Shown: piece by piece, positions 7,947 through 36,095 of the stretch
Position numbering within the stretch: the first letter of the stretch is position 1
Layout of the letters: every line of letters starts with the position of its first letter
NCBI GenBank assembly: GCA_039545335.1
Contig: BCIN01000008.1
Span: 445,528 to 509,527 of the forward strand
Direction of reading: 5' to 3'
Length of the DNA stretch: 64,000 nt
Source of the DNA: Kondoa subrosea
Taxonomy: Eukaryota
Position numbers and translations under genes: made by a program
Notes under the pieces: model-generated
What the model was told of the DNA's origin: nothing
Database searches by the model: none
What the model saw: only the letters and a program-made list of their open reading frames with translations

Positions 7947-10443
7947 GCATTCAATGCAGTCTTTGGCTTGTACAAAACTTTCCATCGTTACTTTGGAACT
8001 GCGCTGCTTCGACATGTGCTATGGAGTGCTGCACGTGCAGCGTTCTGAATGCGTCAAGTCTGATTGCACTTCGATGTCCCAGATCGCTGCGTTTTACTCC
8101 CATACCTCTGTCTTTTGCTCTGCCCTACGATCTTTACGATTCAGTTATAGCTATCCTGCGCTTGAATTTGCTCCCTTAGACCTTAGACCCAGACCGAAAT
8201 GATGCTCAGAGTCAGATTGTCACTTTTGACTCTGCAATAAAAGTCGGGTCATTTTCGAAGCGGGATCGACCCACTTTGCTTGCCTGATATGGAGCACCGC
8301 CGAGACTTGGGCCATGTGTGGCATCAGTGGCCTCATTTCTAGCTTACACCTTGGGCTCTTGGATTCCCTCCTCTTCTCACAAACCACTCACACTTCATCT
8401 CAATCTACATCAAACATGAAAGCTGGATTCGTTGCTCTATCTCTCGCGGCACTCTCTGCAGTGTCTGCTGCTCCTTTAGCCAAGAGGGAAATGACCGATA
8501 TCGATGTCACTAGTTTGTCGCTTTCCTCTGCGCTCGATGGTCTGAGCTAACTTTTATATGCAACAGTCCTCCAGTACGCTCTAACACTAGAACAGTATGT
8601 CGCTCTTCCGAACAGCAACTGTGCTTGTCGCTCATGCTTCTTGACTACCTTAGTCTGGAAAACACTTTCTACAAGCAAGCTTTGGAGAAGTTCGATCAGT
8701 CTGCCTTCACCAATGCTGGCTACTCTTCTTCAGTTCGAAGTAGAATCCAGGAGATCTCAGGTCATGAGAGCTCTCACGTATCATTCCGTAAGCACTTTCC
8801 CGCTCAGCATGTAATCAAGCTTATCCTCTCTTCGCAGTCTCCACTGCTTTGTCTGCAGCTGGTGTTGACCCAACTCAAGCTTGCACTTACGACTTTGGAT
8901 ACAACGATGTCAAGTCCTTCTTGGCTACTTCTTCAATTCTTGAAGGTGTTGGTGTTTCAGCCTACCTCGGAGCTGCTGCGTCAATCACCAATACTGAGTA
9001 CGTTCACTTTTGCTTGTCCAGCGTCTCCAGCTGACTTCCCTCTAGCTACCTGACTGCTGCCGGATCCATCTTGACCGTCGAGTCTCGTCACTCAGCATAT
9101 ATTCGCAACACCATTGGCGAATCTCCATTCCCTCTTGCTTACGACATTCCTCTTGACTTCAACGAAGTTTACTCTTTGGCTGCACCTTTCATCAAGTCTT
9201 GCCCATCAAGCAACCCCACTCTTCCAGTCAAGGCCTTCCCTGGTCTCACTGCTACCACTTCTGGCAAGGCTAAAGCTGGAGGACAGACCAAGTTGACTCC
9301 AACTGATATGTCAAGCATNCAAGGCAAGGGTCAGCTGTACGCTGCATTCATTGGCTTCCCTACCACTTCATTCGGTGAATACAACACCGAGACTGTGAGT
9401 TTCTTTCCTTTACTTTTGAGTNCNTTTGCTCATTTTGACTCGCAGATGATGGTTACTATTCCTGAAGGAGCTGAGGGACAAACCTATGTTGTGCTCACAA
9501 CCAGCAACAAGGCGGTCAGCGATGACAACGTAGTTGCCGGAGTTGGTGTACTTGAGGTTTGCCAGGATTAGAGCGTCTGGGCCAATTGTGTTTCATTGTA
9601 AAATAGCTATTGAGTTCAAAGCAAATGCTAGTATAGTAATCGCAGCGTCTCATTCTTGCCTCTTTTCCCTTCTTCTTTGCCTTAGCTGATTGCTTCACTT
9701 CGCCTTCACTTTTCGAAATTTTGTGTCATGCAGGTTGCTCTTGAATCGCAACTCACAAGTGTCCAAGCCCTGGATCCCCTCTTATTCGTAGCCAGAACGT
9801 AATGCAGCAAGTCCCAGCTCCCCTCTGGGAAACACTGGCGAGCGAGGTCGCGAGGCAGTCCAAAGCAATAGAAGCAATGGATTGGCCTGCAATCATGTCT
9901 GCACCTGCGTTGAAGGGCACAGAAGCTTCACCTGAAGACTCTATGGTCTTTATGAACGCAGTCCGACGTCGCTATCTGGCTGGCAATCCTCATGCTGTAG
10001 CTGTACTGTCCGCGAAACTTGCACTCCGCGGAGATGAGGATCCTGATTATCGTCATGAGCATTACGACGCCCTGGCAAACTTCTTCGCCATCGTTCTGGC
10101 CAATTCCGGTCGCTTCAAAGCTTGGGCTACAGAAGATGCAGCACCTGTTCTCGCGACCTGCATTTCTCAAATCATCGGCTTCGCTGGAAGTGTAGTCATA
10201 TCTGATATGTCTCCCTTCTTCGTCGAAAATGCCTTCAATCTTCTTACGGCCCTTTTCAGCGGCTTAGCAAAGAGACCAGCTTTAGTGGATCAAATTCTAG
10301 GCGAATGGGAATCGATTCCAAATAAAGCAATAGTCGCGGAATACAAGAAAACACTCCACGAGACTCTTCTCAGCATAATAAATTGGTCTGAGAAGGAGAA
10401 GAAGTCGAATCCCATTATGTCTGTTCTGATCAAAGATCAAGCT
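7947..10443 (+). repeat. Left arm of ~2.5-kb inverted segmental duplication
   Basis: The reverse complement of 33401-35928 aligns by eye over the upstream region, the whole ferritin-like gene and the 5' ~640 bp of the MYND gene. One short unalignable stretch at ~8080-8197. Confidence 0.97.
8416..9571 (+). CDS. Secreted Rds1-like ferritin-like (Ferritin_2) stress protein, copy 1
   Basis: Signal peptide MKAGFVALSLAALSAVSAAPLAKR (Kex2-type KR). Spliced motifs LQYALTLEHLENTFY, GHESSH, LEGVGVSAYLG and VESRH; five short introns. Confidence 0.88.
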
Positions 10444-10895
10444 CTCTACCTCGCTGTTGGTCTAGGATACACTGTACCTAATGATATCATGAGTATGGCC
10501 GGTCGGGGACCTGTCTATAACAAGACTTGGGCACAAGTAGCTAAAATGGGAACGGCTGAAGAAAGATTCGCAACCATGTTGCAGCATCAAATGTTCAAGC
10601 ATGCAAAAGCAACGGACTCTTTCGTCTGTCTCTGTTGTGGCAAGTACTACGTTCCGGACGCTCCGCAGGTTCAGGATGAAACGATAGTCAAGCAGTTCAA
10701 AGCTTGTTCCAGGTCAGTCAACACACAGCAATAGGCGCTTGTTTGAATTCATTTGTGATGTACAGCTGTGCGACAGCTATGTACTGTGGTCAAGACTGTC
10801 AGTTGAGGGACTGGAATGAAGGGCACAAGAAGGAGTGCTTTGGGCGCAAACTGCAGAAGGCAAAATCCTCGAAAGATCCGAAGCCTCAAGAGTGA
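9802..10895 (+). CDS. C-terminal MYND zinc-finger protein, paralog B (intact)
   Basis: CLCC...CS|SCATAMYCGQDCQLRDWNEGHKKEC is a canonical MYND after intron 10713-10765. Confidence 0.85.
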
Positions 10896-11280
10896 GAACT
10901 AAGACTGATTTTCAAGAAGCAAGTTATTCCCATAGGAAGAACTGAAGGCGGAAAGGAATGGCCAGAGCAAGCCGACGCGCAAGTTACAGCCTTGAGCATA
11001 ACATTGGTAAGCGAGCAGCTACATGCGCTACTGTGTACTCATAATGCACGCTCAGATTTGTGCACACCTAGCTTGTTGGATGAGCTGACTTGCCGACCTT
11101 AGTCTCACTTGGCGAGCGTTGTCAGTCTTTGCATATATAGACATAGATCAGAAGCGTATTCTAGCACTGTACAAGCCCTGCTCTGCCCATTTGCCGCTTT
11201 ACGACTTATCCTTGTCGTGCTTACTAATCACCTTGTGAAGCGAAAGTAAACAAACTTCTCTCTTCTCTGAATCTGTCAAC

Positions 11281-12685
11281 ATGCGGATCAAATGCACAAT
11301 CTGTCTCAGCAAAGAGGCTACCATAGGGAATCCCGCAACAGCTGATCAATGGGCCACCTCGAATTGCGGGTAAGATCCTGCCTGCGCGCATATCCACGCG
11401 TTCTCTGAGTTTCGCTCTACACAGACATTGCTACCACAAGAACTGCCTTGAGGGTACCTACACTGTGGATAGAAATGGAGACATGGTAATGAAATGCCCT
11501 TGTTGTCGCAAAAAGATCACAACCAAGAAAGTCTATCGTCTGTATTTCGATGAAGCTGGACCGAATGACATTTCTTCTTCTCCGCCTGATGCTCAGATCG
11601 ATGACCCGGAAGAGGACAATGATGAAGAAGATGAAGAAAAGACTACCGCTCGTCTGATAAGGGAAATGCGACTGGGCTTTGCAGCTAAGAAGCAAGAATC
11701 GGAGGCAGCTCAAAAGGCCATTCAGGAGCAATTGGTTCAGATTAATCAGCTCGAGAATCGCTGTCGCCGCTATGAGGCTGACAACGATCAGATCCGCTCT
11801 CAGAAAGATGCTCTTTTCGAGCTCGACAAGCAGAAAGCTGAGCGAATAGTCAAGCTTGAAGCAAGCGTGCGTACCAAGCAACGGAAAGTGGATGATCTTA
11901 CAGCGTACGTGAACAATCTTTGTCAGTCTCTCTTGACGGCCTGATCTTTGCTTCCAGGAGGATGACGGCAAGCGAGACCCGAGCGACAAGCGCGGAGGCA
12001 GAGCGTGATCGGCATATCAGCGATGTCACAAAAGATTTGGAAGCACTGCAGATGCAGCTAAGTCAATCACTGGACAAGCAGTCTCGAACAGCAAGCGAAG
12101 CGGACAAACTGCGCAAGGCGAATGCGAGCTACAAAGACAGACTCGAAAAGCAAGCAGTAAGCAATCGTCCATCAGGAGCTCGCACTTCCTGACAGCAAGA
12201 ATTAGGCGAAGCTAGAGAGACTCAAAGCACAGATTGCACAATCGCAAAATCAGCAACCTGTTCCCAGCTCTTCTCGTAAACGACCTCGAACGGATGACCC
12301 AATCCCATTCAAATCCGGTCCACCGAGTACTTCACGGGCTTCCTCAATGGCACCTCCTTCTTTTAAACCATCTTTAGGCTATACGGTAACAGATCGGCGA
12401 ACTTCGAAACACTCGAAAACCGTCGATTCAGCTCTACTTATCGATGACGAGGATGATATTCCGCAAGTAAACGACTGGCAACCAGAATCAGAAGGAGACG
12501 AAGAGGAGGAAGATGAAGAGGAAGAAGCTTCTTTCATGTACGCTCAAGAATCGTATCAACCAAAAAGAAACAGATTGGGTCCGCTGCCAGATGGTCGATT
12601 AGGGTTACCCAATGGGTTTGTACAACCGAAAGCTCTTCTGGATTTGGGACCGAAACGAAAACCTAAGCTGAGAGTTGTAAAATAG
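11281..12685 (+). CDS. RING finger + coiled-coil E3 ligase (TRAIP-like architecture)
   Basis: Spliced N-terminus MRIKCTIC...CGHICYHKNC...CPCCRKKITTKKVYRLYF, then a long coiled coil and an acidic/basic disordered tail. Confidence 0.72.
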
Positions 12686-12705
12686 AAATGTACAGGGCGC
12701 TCGAT

Positions 12706-14259
12706 CTACATCTTCCGGCGGAAAGCTGATACTTTGCTTCTACTCGGTAAACTACTCTTGACTGCTTGTGATCCGCCGAATGAACCAAACGAACTTGAGC
12801 TTGAGGTCGGCTCCGATAAGCGAGCCTTCTTCGCTGCAGGTTGAGAGATGAAATCCAGTAGATTTGCGGCAGAATCGGCTTGAGTGAGAGAAGGTCTTGG
12901 TCGAGTTCTGACTGGTTCAGCTACTGGTCGACCAAAGATTTTCGGTTTCGCCAACTTGACCGGATTCTCTTTCTTTTCGCTTCGAAGATCATGACCTGGT
13001 TGGTAACCTATATTGAGAGGATCGAGAATACGGATGAAGATAGCACATCCGGGTTCATTCTTCTCTTTTGACTTGCTTTTCTTGAAAGTAGGTAATTGAT
13101 GGAATCTTGTTCCACTCACTCCTTCTTTCATCTCCTCTTCTGCTCCCGCTTCATCCTCGTCTTCTGATTCCACACTAGCTACTCTCGTTTCATCCCTTCT
13201 CATAATGTGAGTCTGCAAATTAAATCTATGCGCCGTTGTTCCACTGGCTATGTTCTCTCCTTTCCCTGTTCGAAAGGCAGCTCCTTTGTTACTTTCGATA
13301 GCAGCGTCTTCCCATAAAGTAGATGCATCGATCTTCATCGTCCCGCTTACTCGACCATGAATTGCTGAATAGGCTGAATTAAGTGGACGAGGTTTAGCAG
13401 ATATACACGATTGAGTGTCTTTACGATCTAATGAGTTTATCAGAATAGTAGGTGGTATCGAAGGGGTGGGAGAAGAAGAGGAAAGAGAATTGTAACGCTT
13501 GAGAGAAGTTATGAGCGACATGTCCGTCTGAATAAGATCTAGATCTCGACTTGATCTAGCTAAGCGGAAGTGATGACGGTGTTTAGGTAGGGAGTTGATG
13601 CCGACGCGTAATGTGTCGATAACGGGTCCGGGTGTGCAATTGGTATTCCTGAGATCTAGGATGCAGAGAGAGGGAAGGAGGTGCATTCGAGCTGCGAAAG
13701 ACAGTGTTATTCGTGAACAACCTTCTAGTGAGAGGATCCGAAGATGCTTGAAGTCATGTTCACTGCTTGTGAGGTATGTAGCAGATTTCTAAAGATATTC
13801 AGACGGGTACAATGAGCTAGGGGAACCGCTTACATCCGTTATACTGTTGTGAGAAACCCGTAGAGCTGTGAGCGATCGACCGAGAATAGGTCGAATGGTG
13901 TTAATAAATTGATCATCGATGTTGAGAAGCGGATCTTGCAAATCCAAGACAGTAATGAAAGAGAACGGTGTAGTCTCTTGACTTCTCCAGATACATCTTT
14001 CATGTAAAATCTTCAACTCCAGACCATCACTCAGCGTTAGCCCAGTGTATACTAAGTATTGCGAAGGTAATTCATTCTGAGCGATCAGTGCCAACCAGAG
14101 ACCATAAGGTAATTTCGGGTCTAGAATATTATTGCGCGGCCAGCTCGCATGGATAGCTTTTGCTAAGAATGTGGAGGCACGGGCAGGAAGACTTGTGAAC
14201 GCCAGCGCCAGCAGAAGATCTTCGTCTTGGGACATTCGACAAAGACGTGCAACGATCAT
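12706..14259 (-). CDS. Hypothetical protein with short LRR region and disordered C-terminus
   Basis: Long ORFs with LRR-like ITVLDL, LTALRVSHNSITD and LCILDLRNTNCT, and an NLS-like AKKARL. The start is uncertain. Confidence 0.55.
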
Positions 14260-14709
14260 GTCAAATAGCGAAGTAGTAGATGAGAGAAATATGTGAGCGA
14301 AATCTGTTTGCGCGTGTATGTTGCGATCGAGAGCAGTTCGGCTGAGGTGATTAGACTTGAGAATAACAGAATCGTCTGAGTCGCGAATGCATGAAACATA
14401 AGATCATTACGACGACGTACAAACACGATGACGAAAGAAGGGTAAAGCAAAACAGACGAAGAGGAAAGGAATAGTGAAGTATGTAAATCAACATGCATTC
14501 GGAAACTCAAAAGGGAGAAGACTAACGCGTTGAGAGTGAATCTGAATGATTCCATACGTTATCTGTCGCCTTCATTCTGTCCATCTTCCTTTAGATTCTC
14601 TCGAAATGCTTGCTTGACCCAAAACCGCGAAGTCTGGGGATAAGATACCTGTGGTCGTGCCAAGAGCCTTGGAGAATATCACTGTCTGCGCTTGCTGGAT
14701 GAGTACCCA

Positions 14710-17700
14710 ATGAGCTTCACTTTTGGGAACTATTCGATGTTTGGGTCAACCGCTGCAAGTAGACAGCAAGATCTGCTCAAGCAAATGGCGGACCAGCAAA
14801 GACAAGGGCAGCCTGCTCCTATGGCTCTTTCGAATGCATCTCCTAGTGTTTCTAGACCTACAATTGCTGCTTTGCCTGCAAATGAAAGTAATCCTTCGTT
14901 GAATAGCAGACCTATTGTCCAAGTCACTACTCATCCGGTCAGAACTGCTCTTGCTTCAACGGAAGATGTTAGAGAAGAGGAAGAGGAGGAAGATGAACTG
15001 GCTAGTGATGCAGAGACGAATGCTGCTGGTTTACAAGCTCCAATACCCGACGTCTTGCCAGCAGCGCCCGAACTTACGCCCGAGGGATCCGCCGGTGGTA
15101 CACAAGCAGAAGGAGAGCCTAAGAAGAAAGGGCGGAGATCAATCACTCCTACAACAACGAAGGTCAGTGGATCATTCACAGCAGCGCAGTTTGATATGAC
15201 AACTTTCGTTTCTCCAGTGCGGTGAAAGTGGACTAATTGGTCACCGAGCGACGAACAAGACTTGTCCCAAATATGCTGAAAGAACTGCTCGAGTCGAAGC
15301 AAAGACGCGTGAATATGTCAATGCTCGTCTAGCTCAAGACGAGGAGGAAGAAGCTGCTGCTTCAGCTGAACGAGAGACAATATCCACTACAGCACGTAAT
15401 ACCTCGCCAGATCGCAACTCTCGGATCCCAACACCGCCAGTTCCTGCTGCACGAATGCATGATCACGAGCATTTAGCTATTACTCGGATCTTAGAGAATC
15501 TCTTGGCCGCCAGAGACCAGAGAGATCAGATGATCGTGGATTGTTTTGCTTTTCTGCCTTGTCCCGCTGCTCATGGCGAATATTACAACCAAGTCGAATC
15601 CCCAAGGAGTTTGCAAACTATCAAGGTGCGCCAACAATAGCTGCATATCGGAATGTAATTAATGAACATTCTGCTATTCGCGCAGAGGGCGTGAGTTTTC
15701 TTCCACTCGAATAGATGAATTGGGCTGAAAGCTCGATGCAGTCATTCTGAAAGGCGCTATTTCAATCAGCAGCAAGTGTACTTCGATCTTAAGTTGGTAT
15801 CACTGAACGGTCTGCAGGTGTTTGACAAGGTGTGTTTGTCTCACACAGTACGAAGAGCTCATTCAGTTCATCCAACTAGAACTCAAACGGTACTCATCGG
15901 TTCTCATGTATTATTAATGTGGGCTGACATATCTGGAGCAGGATATCGAGCATCTCATCGTCTCTCCGACAAGATTGACGATCTATGGGACGAGCAATTT
16001 CCAAGTGTTCGCATGTCTGCTGATATGAAAGATCCGGGCAGATCTGTACCGCAGACGGACACAATTCATGCCTACTATCTCCAAGAAGGCATGTCAGCTA
16101 CCTTACCTGAGATCATCTTCCATCAAAGGTCAAGTACAGTCGATCGAGATGCTTCAGTCATTCCTACCGAAAGACCAGCTTCTTCGCCCTTCGCACCCAG
16201 GCAGCAAAGTAAATCAGCTGCTCCAGAGGAAGTGATCAAACGAACTTCTCCACCTATACTCAAACAATCTTCTCCTGCTCCTCAGCATCCCGTTGCAAGC
16301 AGCAGCAAACTTCAAGCAAAACCTCAACCTATCTGCTACGATTTGACCGACTTACCTGATACGCCTCCTCCTACACCTCCACTTGAATCTGACATACAAC
16401 AGGAAGAAGCAGTATTACCTAATCCCAGTACAGTCGAAGAAGTGCTGAAAGACAGGGAAGCATCTCTTCCTCCAGTCGATGAAAGTATGGATCTGGATCA
16501 ACCTGAGCCTGATCAAGCTCCAGCTCAACAACCTTCTTATAGCGACAATCGGGATTCGTCGCCTTTCGATGTTGAAGCTCTTTTGGAAGAAGCTTATTCC
16601 GGACCAGAGAAAGGCAGCGAATCTAGAAGGGTAGAAGAGAATTCTGAGACTGCGCAAGTGTCTCGCCAACCAGAAGAAATGATGCAAGAGATACAAATAC
16701 AAGACAACAATACTTTGACCACTACTCAAGTGCCTATAGTGCCTAGGCGGAGTGTTTCTCATGATATACAAGTATCTCAATCTACCGTAATTGGTCAAGA
16801 TCTGATGCAGTCTCGTTCGAGCTCGAAAGAACGCAGATCAGAACAGCAACAACCCAATCATATGACTGCCGATCCTCCCGGTACCATTCCATCTATCGTT
16901 GCCAATGTTCCTTCTCGCTCAGTATCCCCACGTAGTCCGCCTTTACAAAATGACAGATCGATTGTTCTTGAACCTCCCGTTCGAGCAACCTCAGTCGCTT
17001 CGAACGTAGAAAGTGGTGCTGAGGCAGATGCCGAAATGACGGACGTTCCTGTAGCGCGCAGCAAATCACCTGATAAAGGCAAGGGTGTTGATCGAACTCA
17101 GTATTTGCCATCGTCACCTCGAAAAGCACAAATTACCGATAGTGCGACTCCCAGAAAACGATTTAAAGCTGTACCCAGTAGGAAAAGTGGTGCTAGTAAT
17201 GCGGAAGATTTCTTCAGCCCAAACAGAACTTCAGCTCTTGCTAGCGCAACAAACAAGGCGCGAAGTCTATCCCCGAATCTGCAAGCTGAAAGGGCAGGTG
17301 CAAGTCAAGATGGTATCTCTTTTTCTCAAGCTGCTTCCGCTCCAGAAGCTGCTGTCATTGGCAGCTCATCGGATTCAGATATTGAGATCATCAACAATCA
17401 ATCTGTCCCACCTGTCCTGGCTCCTTTAGTCACAGCTGATGCTCAACACCAGTCCTCTATCGACGCTGAAATGGATGTTCTGGATGTACCAGCAGATCTC
17501 AATGAGATGCAAGTGGATAGTCCAGCAGAAATGGAAGAAGATACAGAAAGAGTGACTATTCCTCCGAAGCGCGATGAGCAACGACCAGTCAAGAAACGGC
17601 GGATTGGAATGGGTATGCCGACCTCTCGCACCGGTCTTCCATCTCAACGCCGTCCGACACCGGAAGGCGGTTATGAATATGAAGCACCTTACGACATGGG

Positions 17701-19892
17701 TCCGGAAGGCAAAGCAACTATTCGAGTACGATTGTGTAAAGACAAGCATGGACCCAACTTGATAGAAATCCTCAATTCGGACGGAGACAAGGCATCCTGG
17801 CCTCAGTCCGGCCATGAAGAACCAGATAGTACTGGCCAGGTCGATTACTGGCGAGCTTTACCAGACAAATCGGAGGAAGCAAAGACTTGGTATCGTACTA
17901 TTGGCATGGAACTAGCAGATTTCTGGGATCTCTCGCAGAAGAAAGGTATGTATTTGCTTCGCTAATAAGGCATGTCTGTGTTGACGATGATTGTAGATCG
18001 ACAAGAATGGGCTCTCAGATGCTGGCCTCGTGGATATAAACTTTTCGAACATCTGAAGGGAGGCCAACGAAGACCTATAGTGGAGCAACATCTGTGCGGT
18101 TCCAATTTTGCACAATCATGGGCAACGCCTAGGAAAGCTTTGGATCACCTCAACATGCTAGTTAAAGCAGATCCTGCGCCCTGTCCTTGCGAAAGCTGTC
18201 GAGCTCGAGCAGGCGCTGTCCATGTTCAAGTCCCACCTTTGCCTGAGGGTACGAAGATGGCTAGCGAATCGATCATTTGGACACAGCAAAGTCTGGTTGC
18301 TCAAGCCTTCAAACCTCATACAACAGGAACTGGAACCTACGAATACAATCACGAGCTAGGTTTTCACAAAGCCGAAGGCAAAGCTCCTACAACTGATAAT
18401 TATGGACCTCCTAAAGCTCGAGCAAGAGAGAGCAGAAAACTCAAATTTCAAGCAAAGGCCAAAGGATACAAAGGTCCCTATATCAACAGAGAGCGCGAAG
18501 AAGATTTGGCTCGAAGCATTTCTACAAGTTGGGTCCGACATGGAGAAATGGTCTGGGCTCGCATCGCTTATCTTGTCAATGAAGACAACACCATATTCAT
18601 CTCCTACTGGCCTGGTGTCGTTGTCGACCGGCGTCTCATCATTGATACTAAAGTCAGAGCGTCGAAATTGGGCAAATCTGGAGAAACGCCTAGGGAAGAT
18701 GCTTACGAGAATGAACAGCACGTTGAATTCCAGATTGCTCTGTTTGGACTGGTCGAACTGGTTTGGCGAAGCAATGGTGAAATGCTACCAGCCTTAGGTC
18801 ATCAACCCGCTTCTGTACTCAAGACGCTCCCCCTTACTTCCCAAAGCTTTGCTCATATTTATGATGATGAAGAAAAGAAAATCAAAAGAGCTCAATTGCG
18901 TCAACTACTCAAAAGCGACGCCGAAGAAGCACTTTCGGCTTATGCTTTAGCTCTTGAAATCGCTGCTAATGTAGCTTCGAGTTTCAACTTCTTTGATCTA
19001 TACATTACTCGAGAGGAAGGCAAACGAGCCAAAGATACAAAAGAAGTGGCTAATTATCAAGGAGTATATCTTGGAGGTGAACGAATTTGGGTTGGCGATC
19101 TCGTGCGGTTGATTGTGATTACCATGAACGACAAGAGAAGAGAAATTCCGATTCCTGATCCACTTCCCAAGAGAATCGATGCGGATGCAACAATGGGAGC
19201 AGAGGAAGAAGTCGATACTGGTCGCAGTCTCTTGCTCAAGATCAATTCTATCTACTTGGACAGCGAATATGATCATCCTAGAGTATCCGGATCAATCTAT
19301 GAGCTATACGACGAGGATCAATTTGTCACAAACCCAAAAGAAGGTCTTTGTCATCCTGATGAACGGTTCATGCCTTCTCCTCCACCTGGTCACAAGTTTC
19401 GTCTATTGACTGCTATCGGCTGCGAGCATACACTGGACATTGAGCAGTCAGTCTAAAGTCGCAGAGGGAGAATTCTAGGCTAATGTCTGATTCGTAGCAT
19501 CGCTGGTCGATACTATCAAGCTGATCTGCTACATCCCTCTCCTGAAGCTGTGGATGAACCACACGTACCCAAGCTGGATGAAGAAGGCAATGTCGAAGTC
19601 GAGCTGCATACAGATGCGGATCGATGTATGGCTATAGCTGGATTACCACCAGTGTACGTTGCGATTGCTGAACGTAGTGACATGCGATGCTAATAATATG
19701 CTTATGCTATGTACAGGGATTATTTGTTCATTCCCTTTAGTGTTTGTCCCGATCTCTTCCTTTATCGGATGAAGATGAGCTGAACTTGTTCCCGTCCAAT
19801 TTTAGACTTGGGAGAAGAATCGACAAGCTGCGGTCATAAATGCCGAGAAGACTGCGGCAGAAGTGATTTTGGAACTCCATGGACAGACATAA
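14710..19892 (+). CDS. Clr2-family transcriptional silencing protein with N-terminal bromodomain-like region
   Basis: Clr2-like motifs WALRCWPRGYKLFEHLKG...HLCGS...HLNML...CPCESC, VRHGEMVW...YWPG, YQGVYLGGERIWVGDLVRL and IAGRYY. Upstream bromodomain-like FAFLP...EYYNQVESPRSLQTIK...Y...DLKLVSLNG. Confidence 0.75.
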
Positions 19893-20038
19893 GAAGCGCA
19901 TCTCGTTAAATGCCTGGGAAGGTTTCAGCTTGATTGTACAGCATGGATGTATTATAACTCACGTCTTCGGAATTGTACATTGAGTAGATACTCTTCGCGA
20001 CCTGCTCCTCCGTCCGCGCAATATGCTCGGCGAAAGAA

Positions 20039-20420: not shown

Positions 20421-20697
20421 TCACACAACCAGAAGAACTTCAAGAGGCTGTGGAAGTTTTGGACAGAACCTGTAAATCGAAAACAACGACGCATCCTTCG
20501 GCTCGGCTTGCGAGAACCGACAGAGAGCGAGAGAGAACAGACCGCATTATATCCTCAGACCATTGGGTCTCATTGTTATACCACTTTCTTCGGTCGTGAT
20601 ATCATTACACTAAGTTTCGCTTCAAATTCGAGAGAGAGACTTCAGCTTCGACTGCATTTGAGGCTCTGCCTTTCTGTTCCTCTGCTTCTTCTTTCCG

Positions 20698-23574: not shown

Positions 23575-26500
23575 TCAAGCCTTTGCAGATTTGGTTTGCT
23601 TTGATCTGCGCAAGCTACTCGTTAGCCACGGGACCGTGCCTACACAGTGAATGCTTACCGAAGCTTCATCATTAGGAAGACGAGGCTGTCCAAAAGTGTC
23701 AGATGAAGTAAGTTTCAGATGCGACGGAGCTCACGCATAAGACGAAATGCAGAACAGTAGCGTTATGAACAGATCTCGCGTCATATAGTAGTGCTCGCCA
23801 AGATTCAAAGTCGCCAGGTACTCTGATCCTTTCGAGTAGATACAATAACCGCACTCTGTTGTCGATTGCTGCATAGCAAAATTCAGCTCTTGTCGTACAG
23901 AGCTTGACATTTGAGACTCACTGGATTCTGAATATAGCCGGTGTTGGTTTGCATAAATGGTGCCAAGTACTGCTCGCACGTCTGCCCTTGAGGAGGGACA
24001 AAGCGAGCAAGCTCCCGCTCTGCGCAACGGACAGGGACGTCCCATACGATGGCATTCAATAGTGTACCCATGAGGAAGCTGTGCATCACAATATTGACTA
24101 TTAGTACAGCGCGCCGACGACACAAAGATTTGCTCACCGGAAAGGATTGAGGTACTAGTGGGTGAATGAGACTTTGTATACAGTTGTTACATGTGACGAG
24201 ATACTTACATAGAGCCAATCACGCCAAACGCTGAGGGTAAAAACGCAATTTGTCAGCGCACGCATTGAATTGGAGGAACAATCAACGAACGGAGTGATTT
24301 GATTTGGAGGAGACAGAACACCGCAGAACAAGACCAGCACGGTGATGATGAGAGGATTAACCAATGAAGCAAAGACGGCATTTGGTGCGTATGCAGCGAT
24401 AAACTGTTGTATTCATTCAGCAAAGTGGAACGACATTCATCAATGGACCCTTCACCTGTCCAAGGCCGGTATAGACTGAGTTGCAATTGAGTAAGGTACT
24501 AGATTTGCTCTGCAGTGCAGAGACCTACGGAACTAGAAAGTAAAGAGTGGTCAGCATCGAGCCCAAAATCTGGACTAGAAGCAAACGCACTTCATAAAGC
24601 ACCATCTCAGCGAATACAACGCCTGCCACATTCTTGTCGAAGGAAAAGCCGACAACGCTGTAAAAAGGATCGATTACATGAAACATGGGCAAGAAATGGA
24701 ATAGAAGACGTACGGATACCAGCAAACCCAGTAGAGAAGGGCGCACTGTGAGGTGTACAAATTGGAATAGATTTATTTGGTCAAGTGGAAAGACACTTAC
24801 AACCAACAAATATGGCACTTCAGCTACAATCTCGCCGACAATGAATGCCTTCCAGTTGTAGATCATACTCTTCTTCTCGCGAGTTTCAAAGACATCTCTA
24901 TTGGCAATGAACTGTGGGATGATTCTTTAGATTAGCAAGCTTGTGCTTTTGAGCTTCTTTACCTTAGGCTGTGTTTGAGCTATTACACCGGGCGCGACCT
25001 GAAGCAACAAGGCTTAAATCGGCTATGAAGTGGACAGGCAGGACTTACGAAGATGAAGGTGAAGATGGTGAAGAGCCTGACAAGAGGAGATGTCAATTGT
25101 TTCACCCGCGAACCAGAATTCAACTTACCTATTCTGTAAATCGATGAACTCGGTTCCTATCATGTAATAACTGAATCCATTGAATAGTGCCGATCCAATG
25201 TGTAGGAAGACTGTAAGAGCGGTGCACTTAATGGGGGCAAGCCTTCTAAGAACTATCCGTGACGAACCTTTTGATTTGATGTAATCAGTCTGTCTGTACA
25301 GCTGAGTACTGGCTCTGCGCAAGACGACCTTCATCTGTGTGCCGAGTGAAGCAGCGTATTTGTGATCGTCGCCTCCGGAGCTGACATCCTCGTGCTTTTG
25401 GTTGTTTAACCGATCGATTTCTTGCGAAAGCTTCGAACAGCGATCTGATTCCTGCCAGATCTGACCCCAATCTTCGTCGGAAGCCTTCCCCTATAAATAC
25501 ATTGTGAGACAATCGAATACAGGAGGGCAGAGAAACAAACCGAAACAACATCAATCATGACTGCATTCAGTCATCAGCATCAGCAGAATGCACAGCACAT
25601 GTCGAAATACCTACATTCAGCTGGGTTGACATCTTTGGGCTTATCAACACCATTCTCTTCGAAATAATCCGTTATTTCGTTCACTGGGCCAAAGTAGACA
25701 GTATGGCCGCCTGCTTTCAAGAGCAAAAGCTGGTCGAAGGCTGCGAAGAGAGATGCACTTGGTTGATGAATAACGCAGATCTCCAAACAGCATCAGCGAT
25801 AGTACTGTTCAAAGTAGAAACTTCAACTCACGACAGACTGTCCTGCTTTTGCCAATTTAGTAAGGAAGGTTAAGATGAGGAAAGAGCTTTGTCCATCCAA
25901 TCCTGAAGTCGGCTAATGCAATATAATTTGATCAGATACTGAGCGGAAAAACGATGACGGTAGGGCAATACCTCATCCAAGAAAAGCAGAAGCGGTCGAG
26001 CAACTAGCTCGACCCCAATCGTCAACCTCTTCCGCTGCTCTATGGAAAGGCCAGCTCCCGGGAAGCCAACAATAGCATCCTCGATGTCTTTCAATTCAAG
26101 CAGGTCGATAATCGTGTCCACATAGGCAAGTTTCTCGGAATCTAGTTCCAAAATGAGCAACAGACCTTGCCAAGAGCTCTCGACCCACCTGGAGTGTCAC
26201 GAGGTTGGCGAAGCAAAGCGCTGAATTCAAGCGATTCCCGAACAGTCGCTTCGGGAGTATGTACATCTGATCCGATAGTAAGCGCTGTGAGGCTTGGAGT
26301 CAAGTAAGAGCTGACCCATTTGTTCACAGTAGCCCGTTGTTCTCTGGAACGAGACAGGCAGCTGTTTGCCATTGACCAGGATCTCGCCTCGCAATTCACC
26401 CTACACTGCTGTTAGCCTAGGCTGGAAGAAAGGTTCAAGCATACGCACAGTATCTTTTCGTTGGGCTAAGCAATCCATGAGAGTCGTTTTACCCGCACCA

Positions 26501-29500
26501 GAGCTTCCCATCAAAGCAGTCAAAGTTCCAGGTTTGCAATATCCTTGTACATCATGCAAGAGTTGGTTGCCGTTGATCTCGTAGTTAAGCTTCTTCCAGG
26601 TGAAGACTGTTTTCGCAGTAGCTACGTCTGTTTTCGAATCTCCATGTGGGTGTTTCTCAGAGACTTGAGTATTCTGCGCGCCTTCTTCCTCGTCTTTTGG
26701 ACCTGTTCCGCGAGCTGCGACTTGTTTCACGAATTTGCCGCCCGAATTGTGCTTGCTGATGATTCGACGTGTCAGTATAGGTCAGATCCAGGTTGAGATT
26801 GACATACTAGAGCAGATACGATTTCTCCGAGCCAGCAGGCTTTAATCGTTCAGTCATGACCATAGTGAGTACCAGGAATGCAAGGAAAAGAACAACCACT
26901 ATGCCGTACTATATATATGATCATATCTGAGCATGCATGGCATATCTAACAGACCGACAGCAACTCACATTCCGCCATAAATGGGAACGCGAAAAGTTCA
27001 GCGCGGCACTGAGATAATCATCTCCACGAATTGTCGTTGAGCCAAGTGTATTACCATCGAATGCGCAGCCAGCTGGACCGCCTCCATAGCCTTGACCGTA
27101 GGGAATCAAGCGAGGAGGCACGCAAGCGAAGCTTTTGCCAGCGAATTCGTTTGTCACTGGAGTTTGAATCAAGAGTTAGAGGAAAGAAAAGCAAATGTGG
27201 TGTTGTAAACACTCACTGAGACCTGTAATCAAAGGAAAAGATGGACTTAGACACAAATTTTACGCATGGATGCCCCAAAACTTATTCGAAAGAATAATAT
27301 ACGAGATCTAGCCATCTGAACCAACCAAACCTGCAAATTTTGGTGAACAACGCAATTGGTAATCATCAGGGAAACATACCAAGGTTTCATCTGAGGCACT
27401 GGAATTTGATATCCAGCATATGTGACCATCTGACGCCAGGCCGTGAGCGGTTGTGCACCACAGAGGATCGATGGACTTACAACACTGAAAGCAAAGCCTG
27501 ACACTTTTGCTGCACCTTGAAAACTTCCAAAAGAAGCACCGATGAAGCGGAAGAATGCTGTCATAGCTAATGTACTCGTATAGATGAACAGGAAGTATAT
27601 GAAGTATTGCGAAGCTGTTCGGCTCAGACCAGTCCTGTCATTCTTGCTTTAGCGAGTGTCGCTCGAAAAAGAGCCGATCTTACATGAAGTAGACCACGAT
27701 GGTGAATTGTAAGAATTGTAGGAAGAAAAATCTAAACACAGGTATTGGCTACGGTGATGAATGCCTGCAGAGACTGGACATACGGTAGATCTGCGATAGT
27801 TTGGGCGAGAACAATAATAGCAGGACGATATAAAGAGAAGCCAACGTGTTTGCTGAGAATGCTTCGACCTTCGAAACTGGCCGTCGTTTCACTCAAACTC
27901 ATCAAAGCAGGTTGCTAAAACGGGTCGAGGCAAAGAGTAAGCCAAAAATACGCTGCACATCGTCCGGGTGCTCACCAAAATCGACAGGAAACATGTTCCA
28001 CCTCGTACGAAGATGCCATTGGTATCTTCCTGCATATTGTAGAAGGTAGAGCCAAGTAGAAACGATACAATAAAGGTTGTGCCCTTTCACAAAATTTCAG
28101 ACGCATCTGGATTGGCTCAAAGCAGACTCACAACACGAGCAATGAGAGTTGGTTTATCTGCCCATCTCAATTGATATTCTCTGCGGATAGCAGCCATAAG
28201 CTGAGTTCCAGGGCCGACAATTTGCGGAAGTTTCTTGATAGCACTTTTATGTTTATCGGCTGTGATGACAGCTTTGAGGTTCTCAGCCTGTTCATGACGT
28301 CCTTGCTGATCTTCCATATGTTCTTGTAGCTCTCGATACATGGCTTTGTAGGTTTCGCTTTCGCGATATCGTCTTGCGAAATCATCAATGGCGGTAGGCA
28401 CTTCCTTCTCTTTGCCCTCCTTGACCTTGCGTTCTGAAGTTACAGTCACACCAGTAGCGAAATCCGAAATATTAGCGCCGTCATCGCAAAGGCTAGGTTC
28501 AGAATTTAGCTTAGATTAGTGAGTAATACACGACAAACTCACAAGCCCATTTCTTCGAAGTACTTTCGAGTCTCGCTTCTTGGACCGAAGTATATAATCT
28601 GTCCTTCGGCGATGACCATGATTTTATCAAATTGATCAAAGATACCATTGCCTGCCTGATAAAGCCTGCAAGGAAACGGCATCAGCTGATTCGACAGCGA
28701 TATGTAACTCATACATACGAGACGGCAATGGTGTCATGCAGGATATCGGCTCTTGCTCGCATGATCTTGGCAAACTCCAGCGCTGTATTTGCATCGAGAC
28801 CCTGAAAGTTGGACTTAGGTATAGCTCAAGCTCAGCCTGAAGACGCACTCGAGTCGAATTATCCATCAACATTACCGCACTATCGTCTATATCTCGTGTA
28901 AGTATGAGATACCCAACCGCAGACTGTACAAGCTCACTGGTGAGCACCTCGGCTAGTGAAGTTCGTCTTCTTTCACCACCACTAACACCTCGCACATATG
29001 TGTTACCGACTTTAGTAGATAAGGTATGAGACAAGCCAAAGGTATTGAGCAACTCTTTGGTCGTGGCTTTGATATGTTCCTTGAGTGTAGGCTGCTTGTC
29101 TTCGCCAGCATTAGGCGGCAGTCTACTGGGTGTATTCATAGCGACTGCAAAGTCTAATGTCTGTCCTACTTTGAGATCCGGGTAGTGCTATCATAGGCAT
29201 TAAGCGAGGCTTATTACTGTTGTACGCAGCGACAGGCCTTACATCATCATCTTCTGAGCTGAATATCACTTGTTTCGCAAAAGGTTTCAGTTCTTTGAGT
29301 GTAGAATCGCCGTAGAGGACGTCTCCGTCAATTCCGGCATAGCCAGCAGTCTGCCCAGCCAGCGTTTTGAGGAAAGAGGTGCATCCACTGCCTGGTCTCC
29401 CGACTACGAGGAGCATTTCGCCCTCTTTGATAACGCCATTGAAATCATGCAGCAAATATCGTTCGCCTTTTTTGAGGCTTTCGCCGGCACTTGTGTTTTG

Positions 29501-30141
29501 AGACACCTCTCGATCTGAAGCTGCAGATGCTTCAACTTTGGCGTTCTTGATCTTTTTGAGCTTCTTCTTGTCCTTGATTTTGGCAAAAGGATTGAAGGCC
29601 GTGTTGACATTCTCGCCATAGATTATCTGCGGCAGTCAAGAAGCATAGAAATGAGTGAACAATGATGTTGCTGCTGAAGAGATCTTTGACATACATCGTC
29701 ACCTCCTCCTACTCCTCTAACAGACAGACCGCGAAAAGCGACACTAAGAGCTTTCCCTCTGAGACCTAAGGATTTGAGATGCCATATTTCAGACCCATCG
29801 CTCTTTTGACTGTTTTCGCATACCTGCTTCATTCTTTCGATACACCAAATCCTCAAGCAGTTCCCGGTCTAAGGCAGTCAAGAAGCACAGACATGAGCGA
29901 ATGTTGTTGCTACTGAAAAGGCGCATGACATACAGGCCTGTTGCTGAGCTTCAGTATCTGTTGTCTTGCGTTTGGCTGCTTTGGCAGTCTGTTTTTCAGA
30001 TTTCGAATTGGTTGGATCACTTTCAGTGTCGTTCTGGAAACGAGTGTCAGAAGAAGCTCCAGAGGTAGAAGAATCGTCAGCAGCAGCTCCTTCTACGCCA
30101 TTGCCAATCTGCTCCTTCTCGGTTGGAGCAGCAAATTGCAT
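23575..30141 (-). CDS. Full-size PDR/ABCG multidrug ABC transporter (Snq2/AtrB-like)
   Basis: NBD1 has GRPGSGCTS and [11 protein letters not shown]2 has [16 protein letters not shown] and IHQPSA. Two TMD blocks and many introns; the start codon is approximate. Confidence 0.92.
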
Positions 30142-30424
30142 CGACCGGGTTGATATTCAAGCAACAAGAAATCGCGTTTCCAACGCCTAGAGCTTCAAGT
30201 AGTGCTTGATATATCTGTCTAGGGTAAGTAACTTGTTCTGCAGACTGGATATCACGGTTGAGGGCCAAGAATTGTTGCTCTTTGCTCAGATTGCATCGAC
30301 GTTCTCGGCCGCGATTTCCGGGTTACTAACATTCCTCTCTAAGTCCGCATTGGTGACATGTTTGAACAGTGTCCAGAAGCCGGTCGACCGGGCCTGTAAC
30401 CTCTCGCCAAACTGGCATACATTT

Positions 30425-32861
30425 TCATGCAATCCATGAGTACATCTTCCACAACCAGCCCGTCCGCTTAGAGCCTTCCCTTCGTGCAATCTCTTCGTTG
30501 TCTTTCTCATCTTCATATGATTCTGTATGAGTTCCAGAGACAAGATCGACTTCCAGAAGCGAGGGCGCAGGTTCTCGCTTTAGCACTTTCCATATCACAT
30601 ATAGTAGTGCAAAGACGGGAATTTCGACTACGCACGCATGTCAGATACAATAGTATGACGAGAAGAAATGTATTTACTGTAATTTGACACGAAAGAAATC
30701 GCATCAAATCCTCCTTTGAAAGCGCTCCAGCCTGCTTGAAGTATTGAGCATTGCCTCTACCCTTGATTGCAAGCAATAGACGTACCTTGAACTATGATGA
30801 TGAACGTCACTGCAGCTATCACTATCTCTGGAGCAAACCGAGGCGCGCCATTGAATTTGAGATCTTTCAGAGATCTTCCTTGCGCTTTCCATGCTTTCCG
30901 AAAGCGAAGTGATGCTACACCTATGCAAAGCCAAGCAAGTTGATTTGAGACGCCGACAAGATTTTGCGCCCAACCTGAACGCAATGTCAGCGTCTGATAC
31001 AAAAACAGTAGTCTTGACTGACTGAAGATTTCCGCAGCTCCTCCTGGCAAGAAGGACAGACCGAAGAATACTAGGCCCCATACTGCTGTAAAGAGGACAG
31101 ACGCCCAAGGTACACCATTGCGAGTAGTTCGAAGGAAGAACTTGGGTGCTTGACCCATCGCACTGAGACCATATAAGATCCGACTACCGGCAAAGAGCGC
31201 GTGGTTGCCTGCGCTGATGACTGAGGTGAGGACAACGGTATTCATGAAAGAACCAGCTGCACGAGAGCCGACCATTTGGAAGACAAGGGTAAATGGTGAA
31301 GTCTTGACTGATTTGGTTGATAGGCCTGGGTAATTATAGGGAATATCGAAGCCAATGATGATGACAGTGAGAATATAGAAGATAATTATTCTCCAGAAAA
31401 CTCGTCGAATCCTAGAGTATACAGATCAGTACACAAGGAAGTCGCTGCCGAAGGAAAATGACATACACGCGAGGAATTGTTCGAGTCGGATTCTTCGTCT
31501 CAGCCGCAACAACGCTTATGCTTTCCGTCCCTCCATAGGCAAAAGAAGCTGTAACGAAGCTATGGCGCTGCCGAGTCAAGAATCAAGAAGCACATCTGCC
31601 CTTCACAGACTTACAGACTCGCAAATCCGCCAAAGCCATTGAGGAAGGGAGCAGCTCCAAGCTGTGAGACATGACCATTGAGCAATTGGAATGATCACCC
31701 AGAGGGCTCCTACCCACAGTCCAATTTTCACCACCAACTACACCGAGGTCAGTATTCGAATGGATAAACGATGAAGAACATACTGTATCTCCCTTCAGGA
31801 TTTGCTCCTACATTGACTGCTATGCCTACGAAGAAGAAGGCGATGATGCTGATAACCTTCAACAGACTGAGCCAGTATTCGAGCTCTCCGCTGAGTGTTT
31901 ATTGAGCCGCAGTACCTTCAACAGAGAGTCATACCTACTACGCCCTGACATGTATCAAATTGAGGCCAGTGATAAGGAACCAGAATAATAATGATGGTAA
32001 CCAGACTAAGTGATCCGTCCAATATCCCATGAGGACCTGAGCCGCCGTCAAATCACCAGCGAAACTGATTGCATCATTGAACCAGTCTAGAAAGCGCTTC
32101 AGCTCTATTCGGCGGCCTTCTTGAACGACTAACAATTCCAACCAATTGTAAAGCCAAATGCGGGATCCACAAATCGGGCAGAGTATGAGACGAAAGCTGT
32201 TCGAGATAGTCGAGAGTAAGTAGGATGCGATCTTGCGCAACCAAAGTGCTCACTTCCTGCAATGGGGTATTCGGTCTGAAGAGGCAACAATCAGAAATAC
32301 TGAATATAACCCCAACAGTGATACTTACGGCCATCTCTCCTGTAGGAGATATGTACTGCTGTCAGAGAATGCAATAGCTGAAAAATCGATAGTTGCAAAC
32401 CCAGCAATAACATGACCAGCCATACCAGGGCGCCAACAATAGAGTAGTTGATCAAGAGAGAACCAGGACCACCAGTTGCTAGAGATCTCCCAGTACCTAG
32501 TAGTCATTGTCTCAACCCAAGGAGTAGAGTGTTACGAAGCGAGATTTACCTAGGAACAGCCTATTTGGAGAAAAGCATCAACACGAGTGATAATGTCATG
32601 GGACGGTTTCTTACCCTGTACCGATAGTCCCGCCCTTCGTACCCCTCAGTCAGCCTGATATCAGCGCGAGAAGTCGAGAACAGAGCGCACAATCGCAATC
32701 ATCGATATTTGCCGTGACGTCAAAGCCCTCTTCAGGTTGCCATCTGCTTCCTGTACAGACACCTTGACTGCTCTTTCTGCAAGATCGACATCTTTATTTG
32801 AATCCTTGTCGTTGATGATTGCTGTATTTGAAACACCAGGCAATGTAGGCACTATTGACAT
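30425..32861 (-). CDS. Amino acid permease (APC/YAT family)
   Basis: LKRALTSRQISMIAI|GGTIGTG|LFLG, GELEYW, ASFAYGGTES, VFWRIIIFY, SAGNHALFAGSRILY and GVPWASV. Confidence 0.92.
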
Positions 32862-33400
32862 AGCTGAGGAATATTAACAGTCGAAGTCGAGTGTAGGAGA
32901 TGGCCGTGTGTATGGAACAACGAGAACACTTGTGCTTTTTTTTCTCTGGCAAGGAAATTGCGCCATATACAACGCGAGCATGCTTTTACCGTGTCCCGGC
33001 GCGGCGAATCCGGGACCCCGCAGAAAACTCTACTGTCAGTCAGTTGTCAGTCTCTCGAGCCAGGAAGGGTACAATGTGCAGATACCAGCTAAGGCGATGA
33101 TTGAGACACAAGAGCAGAACTGATGGCAACAAGCCGAAAAAGATTGAAATCAAGATAGTAAATTAATTAAAGTAGCATGATTTCCTCGTTGCACATTCAG
33201 CACAGAGACGGGCAAGTAGGGCATACAAGCAGTGTTAAGAGGCTGAGATGACTGTACTGTTAACGAAACGCCTGATGTATACGTGATCTTCCCAACGACA
33301 TCTTCCCTAATTACATTGCCATAGTGCCATACGGAAGTGGTCTTCACTTGCTGTACTGACTTAGCAAGCGAATGAGGTCTAGTCATATCTCAAAGTAAAT

Positions 33401-34036
33401 AGCTTGATCTTTGATCAAGCAGACATGATGGGATTCGACTGCTTCTCCTTCTCAGACCAATTTATTATGCTGAGAAGAGTCTCGTGGAGTGTTTTCCTGT
33501 ATTCCGCAACTATAGCTTTATTTGGAATCGACACCCATTCGCCTAGAATCTGATCCACTAAAGCTGGTCTCTTTGCTAAGCCGCTGAAAAGGGCCGTGAG
33601 AAGATTGAAGGCATTTTCGACGAAGAAGGGAGACATGTCAGATATGACCACACTTCCAGCGAAACCGATGATTTAGAGAAATGCAGGTCGCGAGAACAGG
33701 TGCTGCATCTTCTGTAGCCCAAGCTTTGAAGCGACCGGAATTGGCCAGAACGATGGCGAAGAAGTTTGCTAGGGCGTCATGATGCTCGTGACGATAATCA
33801 GAATCCTCATCTTCGCAGAGTGCAAGTTTCGCGGACAGTACAGCATGAGGATTGCCAGCCAGATAACGACGTCGGACTGCGTTCATAAAGACCATAGAGT
33901 CTTCAGGTGAGGCTTCTGTGCCCTTCAACGCAGGTGCGGACATGATTGCAGGCCAATCCATTGCTTCTATCGCTTTGGACTGTCTCGCGACTTCGCTCGC
34001 CAGCGTTTGCCAGAGTGATGGTGGGACTTGCTGCAT
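33401..34036 (-). pseudogene. Truncated, frameshifted copy of MYND paralog B
   Basis: Near-identical translation to the 9802 gene. It has a 6-nt deletion (AVAVLS>AVLS), a +1 insertion near 33675 (TCTCTAAATC vs TCTCAAATC) and a 1-nt deletion giving a stop at 33415-33417. Homology ends at ~33401, so the MYND domain is absent. Confidence 0.9.
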
Positions 34037-34265
34037 CGTGATCGTCTTCTGACTACGAACAGGAACTAGTCCAAGGCTCGAAGACTGATCTATTACGTTC
34101 AAGAGCAACCTATATGCCACAAAATTTCGAAAGGGAAGGGAAAGTGAAGAGATCAGCTAAGGCAAAAAGGAAGGGAAAAGAGGCAATGGTTAGATGTTGC
34201 GATTACTATACTAGCATTTGAACTCAATAGCTATTTTACAATGAAACACAATTGGCCCAGACGCT

Positions 34266-35422
34266 CTAATCCTGGCAAACCTCAAGTACACCAACTCCGG
34301 CAACTACGTTGTCATCGCTGACCGCCTTGTTGCTGGTTGTGAGCACAACATAGGTTTGTCCCTCAGCTCCTTCAGGAATAGTAACCATCATCTGCGAGTC
34401 AAAATGAGCAAANGNACTCAAAAGTAAAGGAAAGAAACTCACAGTCTCGGTGTTGTATTCACCGAATGAAGTGGTAGGGAAGCCAATGAATGCAGCGTAC
34501 AGCTGACCCTTGCCTTGNATGCTTGACATATCAGTTGGAGTCAACTTGGTCTGTCCTCCAGCTTTAGCCTTGCCAGAAGTGGTAGCAGTGAGACCAGGGA
34601 AGGCCTTGACTGGAAGAGTGGGGTTGCTTGATGGGCAAGACTTGATGAAAGGTGCAGCCAAAGAGTAAACTTCGTTGAAGTCAAGAGGGATGTCGTATGC
34701 AAGAGGGAATGGAGATTCGCCGATGGTGTTGCGAATATATGCTGAGTGACGAGACTCGACGGTCAAGATGGATCCGGCAGCAGTCAGGTAGCTATTGAGG
34801 AGTCAGCTGGAGACGCTGGACAAGCAAAAAATGAACGTACTCAGGGTTGGTGATTGACGCAGCAGCTCCGAGGTAGGCTGATACACCGACACCTTCGAGG
34901 ATTGAAGAAGTAGCCAAGAAAGACTTGACATCATTGTATCCAAAGTCGTAAGTGCAAGCTTGAGTCGGGTCAACACCAGCTGCAGACAAAGCGGTGGAGA
35001 CTGCGAAGAGAGGATAAGCTTGATTGAATGCTGAGCAGGAAAGTGCTTACGGAATGAGACGTGAGAGCTTTCATGACCTGAGATCTCCTGAATTCTGCTT
35101 CGAACTGAAGAAGAGTAGCCAGCGTTGGTGAAGGCAGACTGATCGAACTTCTCCAAAGCTTGCTTGTAGAACGTGTTCTCCAGACTAAGATAGTCAAGAA
35201 GCATGAGCGACAAGTAAAGTTGCTCCTGAGAAGAATGACATACTGTTCTAGTGTTAAAGCGTACTGAAGAACTGTTGCATGGAGAAGTCAGCTCAGATCA
35301 TCGAGTGCAGAGATAAGCGACAAACTAGTGATATCGATATCGGTCATCTCCCTCTTGGCTAGAGGAGCAGCAGACACTGCAGAGAGTGCCGCGAGAGATA
35401 GAGCAACGAATCCAGCTTTCAT
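34266..35422 (-). CDS. Secreted Rds1-like ferritin-like protein, copy 2
   Basis: Same exon structure and near-identical protein to 8416-9571; the coding differences seen are mostly synonymous. Confidence 0.88.
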
Positions 35423-36095
35423 GTTTGATATAGATTGAGTTGAAGTGTGAGTGGTTTGTGAGAAGAGGAACCAATCCAAGAGCCCAAGGTGTAAGCTAGA
35501 AATGAGGCCACTGATGCCACACATGGCCCAAGTCTCGGCGGTGCTCCATATCAGGCAAGCAAAGTGGGTCGATCCCGCTTCGAAAATGACCCGACTTTTA
35601 TTGCAGAGTCAAAAGTGACAATCTGACTCTGAGCATCATTCGGCCCAGACTTGCTTTAACAGGCCTAATTCAGGGTAGCAGGCAGTTGAACGGACTATAG
35701 GGCAGAGCAGAGTACGAGGTAGCTCGGAGTGAGAGAGAAACGAAGAATGTTAAAAGGCCATTACCGTATGCAGCGTTCCCGCGAGCTCGGACATCGAAGT
35801 GCAATCAGACTCGACGCATTCGGTACGCTGCACGTCAAGCACTCCGATAGCACATGTCGAAGTAGCCCAGTTTCAAAGTAACGGTGGAAGTTTTTGAACA
35901 AGCCAAATTTCCGGACTGCATTGAATGCAGCAAGATGCAGAGTCGGAGGCCTAATAGCTAGATCTCAGACGAGGTCAAGATCAGGAGAACAAAAATAATT
36001 ACAATGAAATGATACTATGCATCTGTATTACTCACAAAATGGAATGTTCACCTACTATATACACCTTTGCCAAACACTGATCATGGGGGTCAAAC

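Follow-up and report, generated by a model that had tools for sequence, protein, structure and literature searches.

The 24-kb flip/flop region of Saccharomyces chromosome XIV, as described by Salzberg et al. (2022, PMC9731477), is bounded by almost identical 4-kb arms, has been shown in both orientations, and is the one common region of its kind in their account. The same report cites a share of about 4% of conversions that are crossovers, and records 0 flips between these near-identical 4-kb arms in ≈53,800 mitoses and 950 meioses. In Candida albicans, long ORF-containing repeats were described by Todd et al. (2019, PMC6591007), with PCR-confirmed inversions between inverted copies and spacers of 3–94 kb (median ≈35 kb). 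The mating-type flip/flop of Ogataea polymorpha, in the description by Hanson et al. (2017, PMC5720833), has identical arms, adjoining MAT genes and a silencing centromere, and needs induction by starvation. Inverted duplications of up to ≈1.9 kb also arise at breakpoints in the staggered-break model, where they were tied to inversions with the help of outgroups (Ranz et al. 2007, PMC1885836).

Here, we describe an inverted repeat in Kondoa subrosea, found in a stretch of 64,000 nucleotides (the window, C8:445528–509527, where C8 is contig BCIN01000008.1) from an intron-rich genome of 18.9 Mb in 27 contigs. We consider it probable that the repeat is an old local inverted gene duplication that has been partly homogenised and whose orientation is mostly static. 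A comparison of the window with itself by blastn gave a single long inverted match (E 0), in which 2310 of 2549 columns were identical (91%) and 61 were gap columns, enclosing an interior of 22,945 bp (Table 1). The arms on which the original prediction was built are real, although its inner ends (10443/33401) fell 6 bases short.

As in the region described on Saccharomyces chromosome XIV, a gene-bearing inverted repeat surrounds ≈23–24 kb of ordinary genes, and a crossover would break no gene; the homogenisation by gene conversion seen there is partial in Kondoa and does not extend over the whole arm. Unlike that region, the Kondoa arms match at 91%, a single orientation is known, and 625 kb of the contig contain ten pairs of a similar kind. 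The locus would be an inverted gene duplication of the chromosome XIV type, less homogenised; two orientations are the defining feature of that type, and membership is unproven. The C. albicans repeats, as reported, are likewise two-copy, gene-containing and inverted; there, however, intra-chromosomal repeats are reported to be mostly tandem and the inversions were confirmed by PCR, whereas the dispersed pairs on C8 are almost all inverted. The described O. polymorpha locus is similar in its dimensions, with arms of 2–2.5 kb around 19–23 kb, and in carrying a truncated gene copy in one arm. The reported staggered-break duplications resemble the Kondoa pair as inverted copies of unique genes, ≈88% identical, of which one has often decayed, but the Kondoa left arm seems to keep both of its original neighbours.

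Table 1. Features of the inverted repeat and its surroundings (positions are those of the window).
Feature	Position	Strand	Evidence
Left arm of inverted repeat	7947..10449	+	blastn, 91% to right arm; outer junction in 2,299-bp contig with 0 differences
Right arm of inverted repeat	33395..35928	-	blastn; right-arm alleles and outer flank present in contigs aligned on left arm
Unique interior, ordinary genes (Clr2-like, PET117, ATP4, ABC-2 transporter, amino-acid permease, others)	10450..33394	.	Pfam
Ferritin-like gene, PF13668, Rds1-type, 6 exons, 297 aa, intact	8416..9571	+	Pfam on three exons; GT-AG introns
Second ferritin-like gene, intact, 297 aa	34266..35422	-	2 aa differences from 8416..9571 copy; gene model
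Identical promoter stretch, 168 bp	8198..8365	+	partner 35473-35640; 0 differences, neighbours 10-40% diverged
Gene-conversion tract, left copy, 468 bp	9149..9616	+	no phased difference, 3 mirrored Ns
Gene-conversion tract, right copy	34221..34688	-	alignment with left copy
MYND-B, intact	9802..10895	+	5' two thirds inside arm, MYND finger in unique interior DNA; zf-MYND on last exon
Truncated, frameshifted MYND-B copy	33395..34036	-	comparison with MYND-B: 22 synonymous, 12 nonsynonymous differences
MYND-A, distant paralogue	6450..7506, 3' end approximate	+	zf-MYND match at C8:452965-453033; just outside left arm
Arm of second, neighbouring inverted pair	5724..6155	-	partner C8:435200-435630 outside window; 86% over 432 bp

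The presence of both arms was checked in two sets of short-read contigs over positions 5500–9421. These sets represent two runs from one sample, possibly the assembled sample, and so are not independent. Alleles specific to the left and right arms occurred at nearly equal depth (160/155 in one set and 54/61 in the other, compared to 140 and 58 for the flank), while stretches common to both arms reached 227–237 and 98–113, or ≈1.6–1.9 times the single-copy depth. One contig spans the left outer junction, and the right outer flank is carried by a loose contig end. The contigs break at the core shared by the arms and cannot be phased across it; they also collapse single-base bubbles, with only the right-arm allele present at 9115 and 9139, and the letters under Ns cannot be read from them. 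Both arms exist, and a misassembly of the two is unlikely because the arm-specific alleles are nearly equal in depth.

In each arm, ≈470 bp of sequence precede a ferritin-like gene with six exons. This complete Ferritin_2 gene is the main content of each arm and had been left unnamed in the text of the original prediction. Both copies are intact and have been retained under purifying selection, with a dS of 0.21 and a dN of 0.005 upstream of the core (dN/dS ≈0.02). Both products appear to be of a secreted type, since the N-terminus is hydrophobic and, on inspection by eye, resembles a signal peptide. We take the name Rds1 to apply to the pair, in part from a rust-fungus study in which an rds1p-like secreted protein is tied to PF13668 (PMC7990074).

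The divergence between the ferritin-like copies stops at position 9149. Upstream of it, 24 of 131 synonymous sites (18%) and 26 of 212 columns in introns 1–4 differ; within 9149–9616, Ns aside, none of 88 synonymous sites and none of 51 intron columns do. With all Ns counted there are at most 3 differences in the core, where ≈22 would be expected (Poisson P 4e-7). The 468-bp core is a gene-conversion tract, and the arms therefore do recombine ectopically. The 168-bp promoter stretch is either a second conversion tract or a constrained element. Together, the two stretches make up ≈640 of the 2,503 bp of the arm, about a quarter, while the remainder is 5–40% diverged. The MYND portion also has an identical run of 94 bp, which on a rough estimate could arise by chance.

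The core had been described as identical over 9149–9620/34217–34688. Near-identity is borne out, but the figure is probably 99% and not 100%, given three Ns mirrored in the two arms (9319/34518, 9422/34415 and 9424/34413), which are the only Ns in the window. No phased difference comes closer to them than 171 bp. Across the surveyed 625 kb there are 29 short runs of N, all of them within two inverted pairs, and the other of these has 7 mirrored Ns at least 124 bp from a phased difference, as well as 11 one-sided Ns that do not follow the pattern. The mirrored Ns are probably real differences between the arms that the assembler could not assign. This calls for caution, as short-read assemblies leave the conversion cores of such repeats only partly resolved.

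The 3' part of MYND-B is single-copy in the genome, and other paralogues are 20–27% identical, while MYND-A matches MYND-B at 33% over 61 aa. In the right copy, one base is inserted at 33675, 6 bp are missing in frame and one further base is missing near 33418, and the copy ends with the arm at 33395; a search for a remnant of its 3' end gave a best local score of 23, equalled or exceeded in 129 of 200 shuffles. A copy that was neutral from birth would be expected to show more than half nonsynonymous differences. The share in the cut copy is below this (P 0.001–0.02 across transition biases), and the ratio is equal on both sides of the frameshift. Because of this low nonsynonymous share, the cut copy seems to have been selected until a recent time; the simplest account is a complete second gene, cut only later. 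A simple late deletion would allow, but does not predict, the absence of a remnant of the right 3' end, which counts against this account. In a protein search with MYND-B, none of 2,145 candidates (170–543 aa) passed at E 0.001; in a protein atlas it was placed with Basidiomycota clusters of MYND type (0.90, low recognition), which is a lead only.

Ordinary genes fill the interior. Pfam was run on 50 ORFs in the first 45 kb of the window and on 5 small exons, and upheld the labels Clr2, ATP synthase b (ATP4), ABC-2 transporter, amino-acid permease and PET117, while RING, LRR and HUA1 had no match in the exons submitted. No recombinase or transposase was matched in the same set. A DNA transposon with terminal inverted repeats was rejected: the flanks at the outer ends differ (no target-site duplication), no transposase was found in the 50 ORFs, and there are two copies only. 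Homology between the outer flanks is at the level of chance (56 of 200 shuffles equal or better). A search for a tRNA anchor, made with bacterial settings that may miss intron-bearing tRNAs, gave none in the window and none at 8 loci. The neighbouring inverted pair ends 1.8 kb to the left of the 7947 arm, and its opposite-strand joint is present in the contigs.

Similar pairs are common along the contig. In a survey of C8 from 245 to 870 kb (625 kb out of 1.12 Mb, and 3% of the genome), 29 blastn rows were reduced to 11 inverted pairs with spacers of 2.7–79 kb, which enclose 48% of the stretch. Direct repeats amounted to 1 dispersed pair (4.2 kb) and 4 tandem pairs of less than 1.6 kb. Protein comparison added an older dispersed direct pair (38–46%), a further tandem pair and a distant MYND pair in inverted orientation. 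The excess of inverted over dispersed direct pairs (11 vs 1) has a binomial P of 0.006, or 0.02 (9 vs 1) without the two pairs that prompted the choice of region. None of the 11 pairs cross, where 2.5 would be expected (P ≈0.05; P 0.2 without the two chosen pairs). The other arms also carry ordinary genes, including a protein kinase, ribosomal L21p and Yae1. In unconverted coding parts, the synonymous difference is 0.17–0.30 in 9 of 11 pairs, including the present pair upstream of its core, although frame choice biases these pair-by-pair values upward and n is small. The exceptions are one old pair in two blocks (≈0.5) and one heavily converted pair (0.06). A second inverted pair of ferritin-like genes, with an identical run of 1,348 bp, lies on contig C6, and 240 kb from other contigs contained 1 inverted and 1 tandem pair, in pieces of 10–40 kb that are too short for comparison.

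Taken as an old duplication, the locus probably formed as follows. A local event would have set down, at a distance of 23 kb, an inverted copy of a ferritin-like gene together with its promoter and the MYND gene next to it, either by copy-and-paste or by a staggered-break inversion that then flipped back. The head-to-tail position of MYND-A ahead of the left arm is a hint that the original lies on the left. The second MYND copy would have been selected for most of its history and lately cut and frameshifted, and occasional repair of one arm from the other would have overwritten one or two patches. By geometry, if such repair were resolved as a crossover, the interior would be inverted and no gene harmed. 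This agrees with the original prediction, in which a crossover in the core leaves all genes whole, and the conversion tract indicates that the arms recombine. Inverted pairs may persist in this way since their recombination is harmless, while recombination between direct pairs would delete the genes between them. Only a quarter of the arm is homogenised, and flips of the 23-kb segment are therefore expected to be rare accidents, with the orientation probably fixed or nearly so. The static duplication that had been offered as an alternative to an invertible locus fits best, in a mostly static form, and such pairs are common on the contig.

We also considered the possibility that the interior inverts recurrently and neutrally, so that both orientations segregate among strains as on Saccharomyces chromosome XIV. 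The conversion tract between the arms, the layout and interior size shared with the flip/flop region and the lack of crossing among the 11 pairs are consistent with this, as is the 32-kb inversion associated with a 1.7-kb inverted repeat in the C. albicans data (PMC6591007). However, the arms are 91% identical and their longest near-identical run is 468 bp, compared to almost identical 4-kb arms in the flip/flop region, and a synonymous divergence of 0.2 has accumulated in the unconverted part. Only one orientation has been observed, in contigs that could not have revealed another. Recurrent inversion is possible but somewhat unlikely, although the absence of crossing pairs may mean that flips are more frequent than we have assumed.

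An origin compatible with both the static and the recurrently inverting reading is that the arms were once alleles in two parental genomes that had diverged and then met in a hybrid ancestor. This would explain how even the cut MYND copy, at 22 synonymous against 12 nonsynonymous differences, diverged under selection. It would also account for the similar age of many pairs, as the narrow range of synonymous difference suggests. The same numbers would be given by a full-length duplicate that was cut late, however; the synonymous values carry the bias and small numbers noted above, and every pair would need its own non-homologous junction. We regard a hybrid origin as quite improbable.

A regulated switch is very improbable. 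One route would be a position effect of the Ogataea kind; another would join the frameshifted MYND 5' end to the single 3' end of MYND-B. Since that 3' end is unique, an exchange of this second kind would formally disrupt the gene and might likewise repair it. However, the target below the frameshift is 281 bp long and ≈94% identical, its longest identical run is 55 bp, and it shows no homogenisation. The proposed MYND on/off switch is thus unsupported and unlikely, and a crossover there would be a rare loss-of-function accident. The analogy with Ogataea and Komagataella mating-type loci also fails on the features tested. The arms are not identical, and the surveyed 625 kb carry ten further pairs of this kind. 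Among the best candidates only, STE3 matches fell on C1 and C4 and homeodomain matches on C2, C3, C6 and C11, with none on C8, and Pfam found no MAT gene in the window ORFs scanned. By a sequence proxy, no centromere-like region adjoins either arm: both outer flanks are gene-dense with average GC (0.44–0.48), the only gene-poor stretch is ≈127 kb away, and the locus is more than 400 kb from both contig ends. As judged from these MAT-type matches off C8 and the lack of a centromere-like flank, the locus is not a mating-type flip/flop. Of the invertible locus originally proposed, rare passive flips are possible, while a regulated flip-flop is very unlikely.

That the assembler wrote one locus twice is next to inconceivable: the mirrored Ns do point to a core that was not fully resolved, but the arms are 9% diverged, their alleles appear separately at single-copy depth, and both outer junctions are present in raw-data contigs.

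The locus adds a basidiomycete-type example to the gene-bearing inverted repeats that undergo conversion. The density of inverted pairs is a more interesting lead than the single locus. No fungal chromosome with a comparable density was found in a literature search that was made mostly at listing level and largely outside subscription papers. Tentatively, and as an unlikely extension, the chromosome might be made up for the most part of invertible blocks that sit side by side or one inside another without crossing, with inverted copies of ordinary genes at the borders of each. Ectopic recombination would then occur often enough to remove pairs that are direct or interleaved, and strains would differ in the orientation of dozens of blocks, amounting to hundreds of regions like that of chromosome XIV, perhaps from one burst such as a hybridisation. 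If many blocks flip among strains, the dependence of inversion rate on arm length, identity and spacing would become measurable at dozens of loci, and origin and survival could be separated as sources of the orientation bias of duplicates.

Ferritin-like genes in inverted orientation recur on contig C6, where the two arms share an identical run of 1,348 bp and the 3.9 kb between them contains a MYND gene and an ORF labelled GDSL-like by eye. Genome-wide, a MYND match lies within 10 kb of four of the nine ferritin-like loci, which by a rough estimate exceeds the expectation from the 36 MYND matches listed. Another ferritin-like gene is found on C8, 1 kb beyond the right arm of the 798/839-kb pair and outside that arm. 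This pair has long near-identical runs, with Ns at matching positions in both arms, and a third copy at 80% identity on C7 (332533–337437); a Pfam search of four of its ORFs returned no match.

The main inverted repeat of the window carries a short near-palindrome at the outer end of both arms, of 11 bp on the left (7947–7957) and 15–17 bp on the right (35915–35931). For the membrane-protein gene directly beyond the right arm, Pfam gave no convincing match. In the inverted paralogue pair close to this repeat, on its left side, the copies are 47% identical, and the DNA of their 5′ ends and promoters is 86% identical; as judged from sequence, gene conversion in this pair is confined to the gene start.

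Repeats, duplicated genes and receptor loci (contig coordinates unless marked as window)
Feature	Position	Orientation or strand	Remarks
Ferritin-like pair, second in genome	C6:1050454-1052791 / 1056644-1058984	inverted	94% identity
Repeat pair, 5.4 kb	C8:798162-804773 / 839086-844913	inverted	93% identity
Paralogue pair	window 5724-6155 and C8:435200-435630	inverted	
Membrane-protein gene	window 36100-37860	-	multi-exon
Kinase gene, two copies	C8:307935-309441 / 344154-345666	inverted	90% identity; Pfam Pkinase
Ribosomal L21p gene, duplicated	C8 648/682 kb	inverted	
Yae1 gene, duplicated	C8 688/704 kb	inverted	
STE3-like receptor loci (four)	C1:2745580, C1:2428923, C4:51017, C4:1439612		
Gene-poor stretch	C8:320226-326401	inverted	99.6% identity; arms around a 2.7-kb core

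Ordinary genes on C8 are also duplicated as inverted copies, among them a kinase that by eye reads like an Aurora-type enzyme. The two STE3-like (pheromone-receptor type) loci on C4 have a common exon pattern.

The most gene-poor part of the surveyed 625 kb of C8 is itself an inverted repeat, one arm of which carries a 1,165-N gap. Komagataella centromeres are reportedly of the inverted-repeat type, and the layout of this stretch resembles them, making it a candidate centromere.
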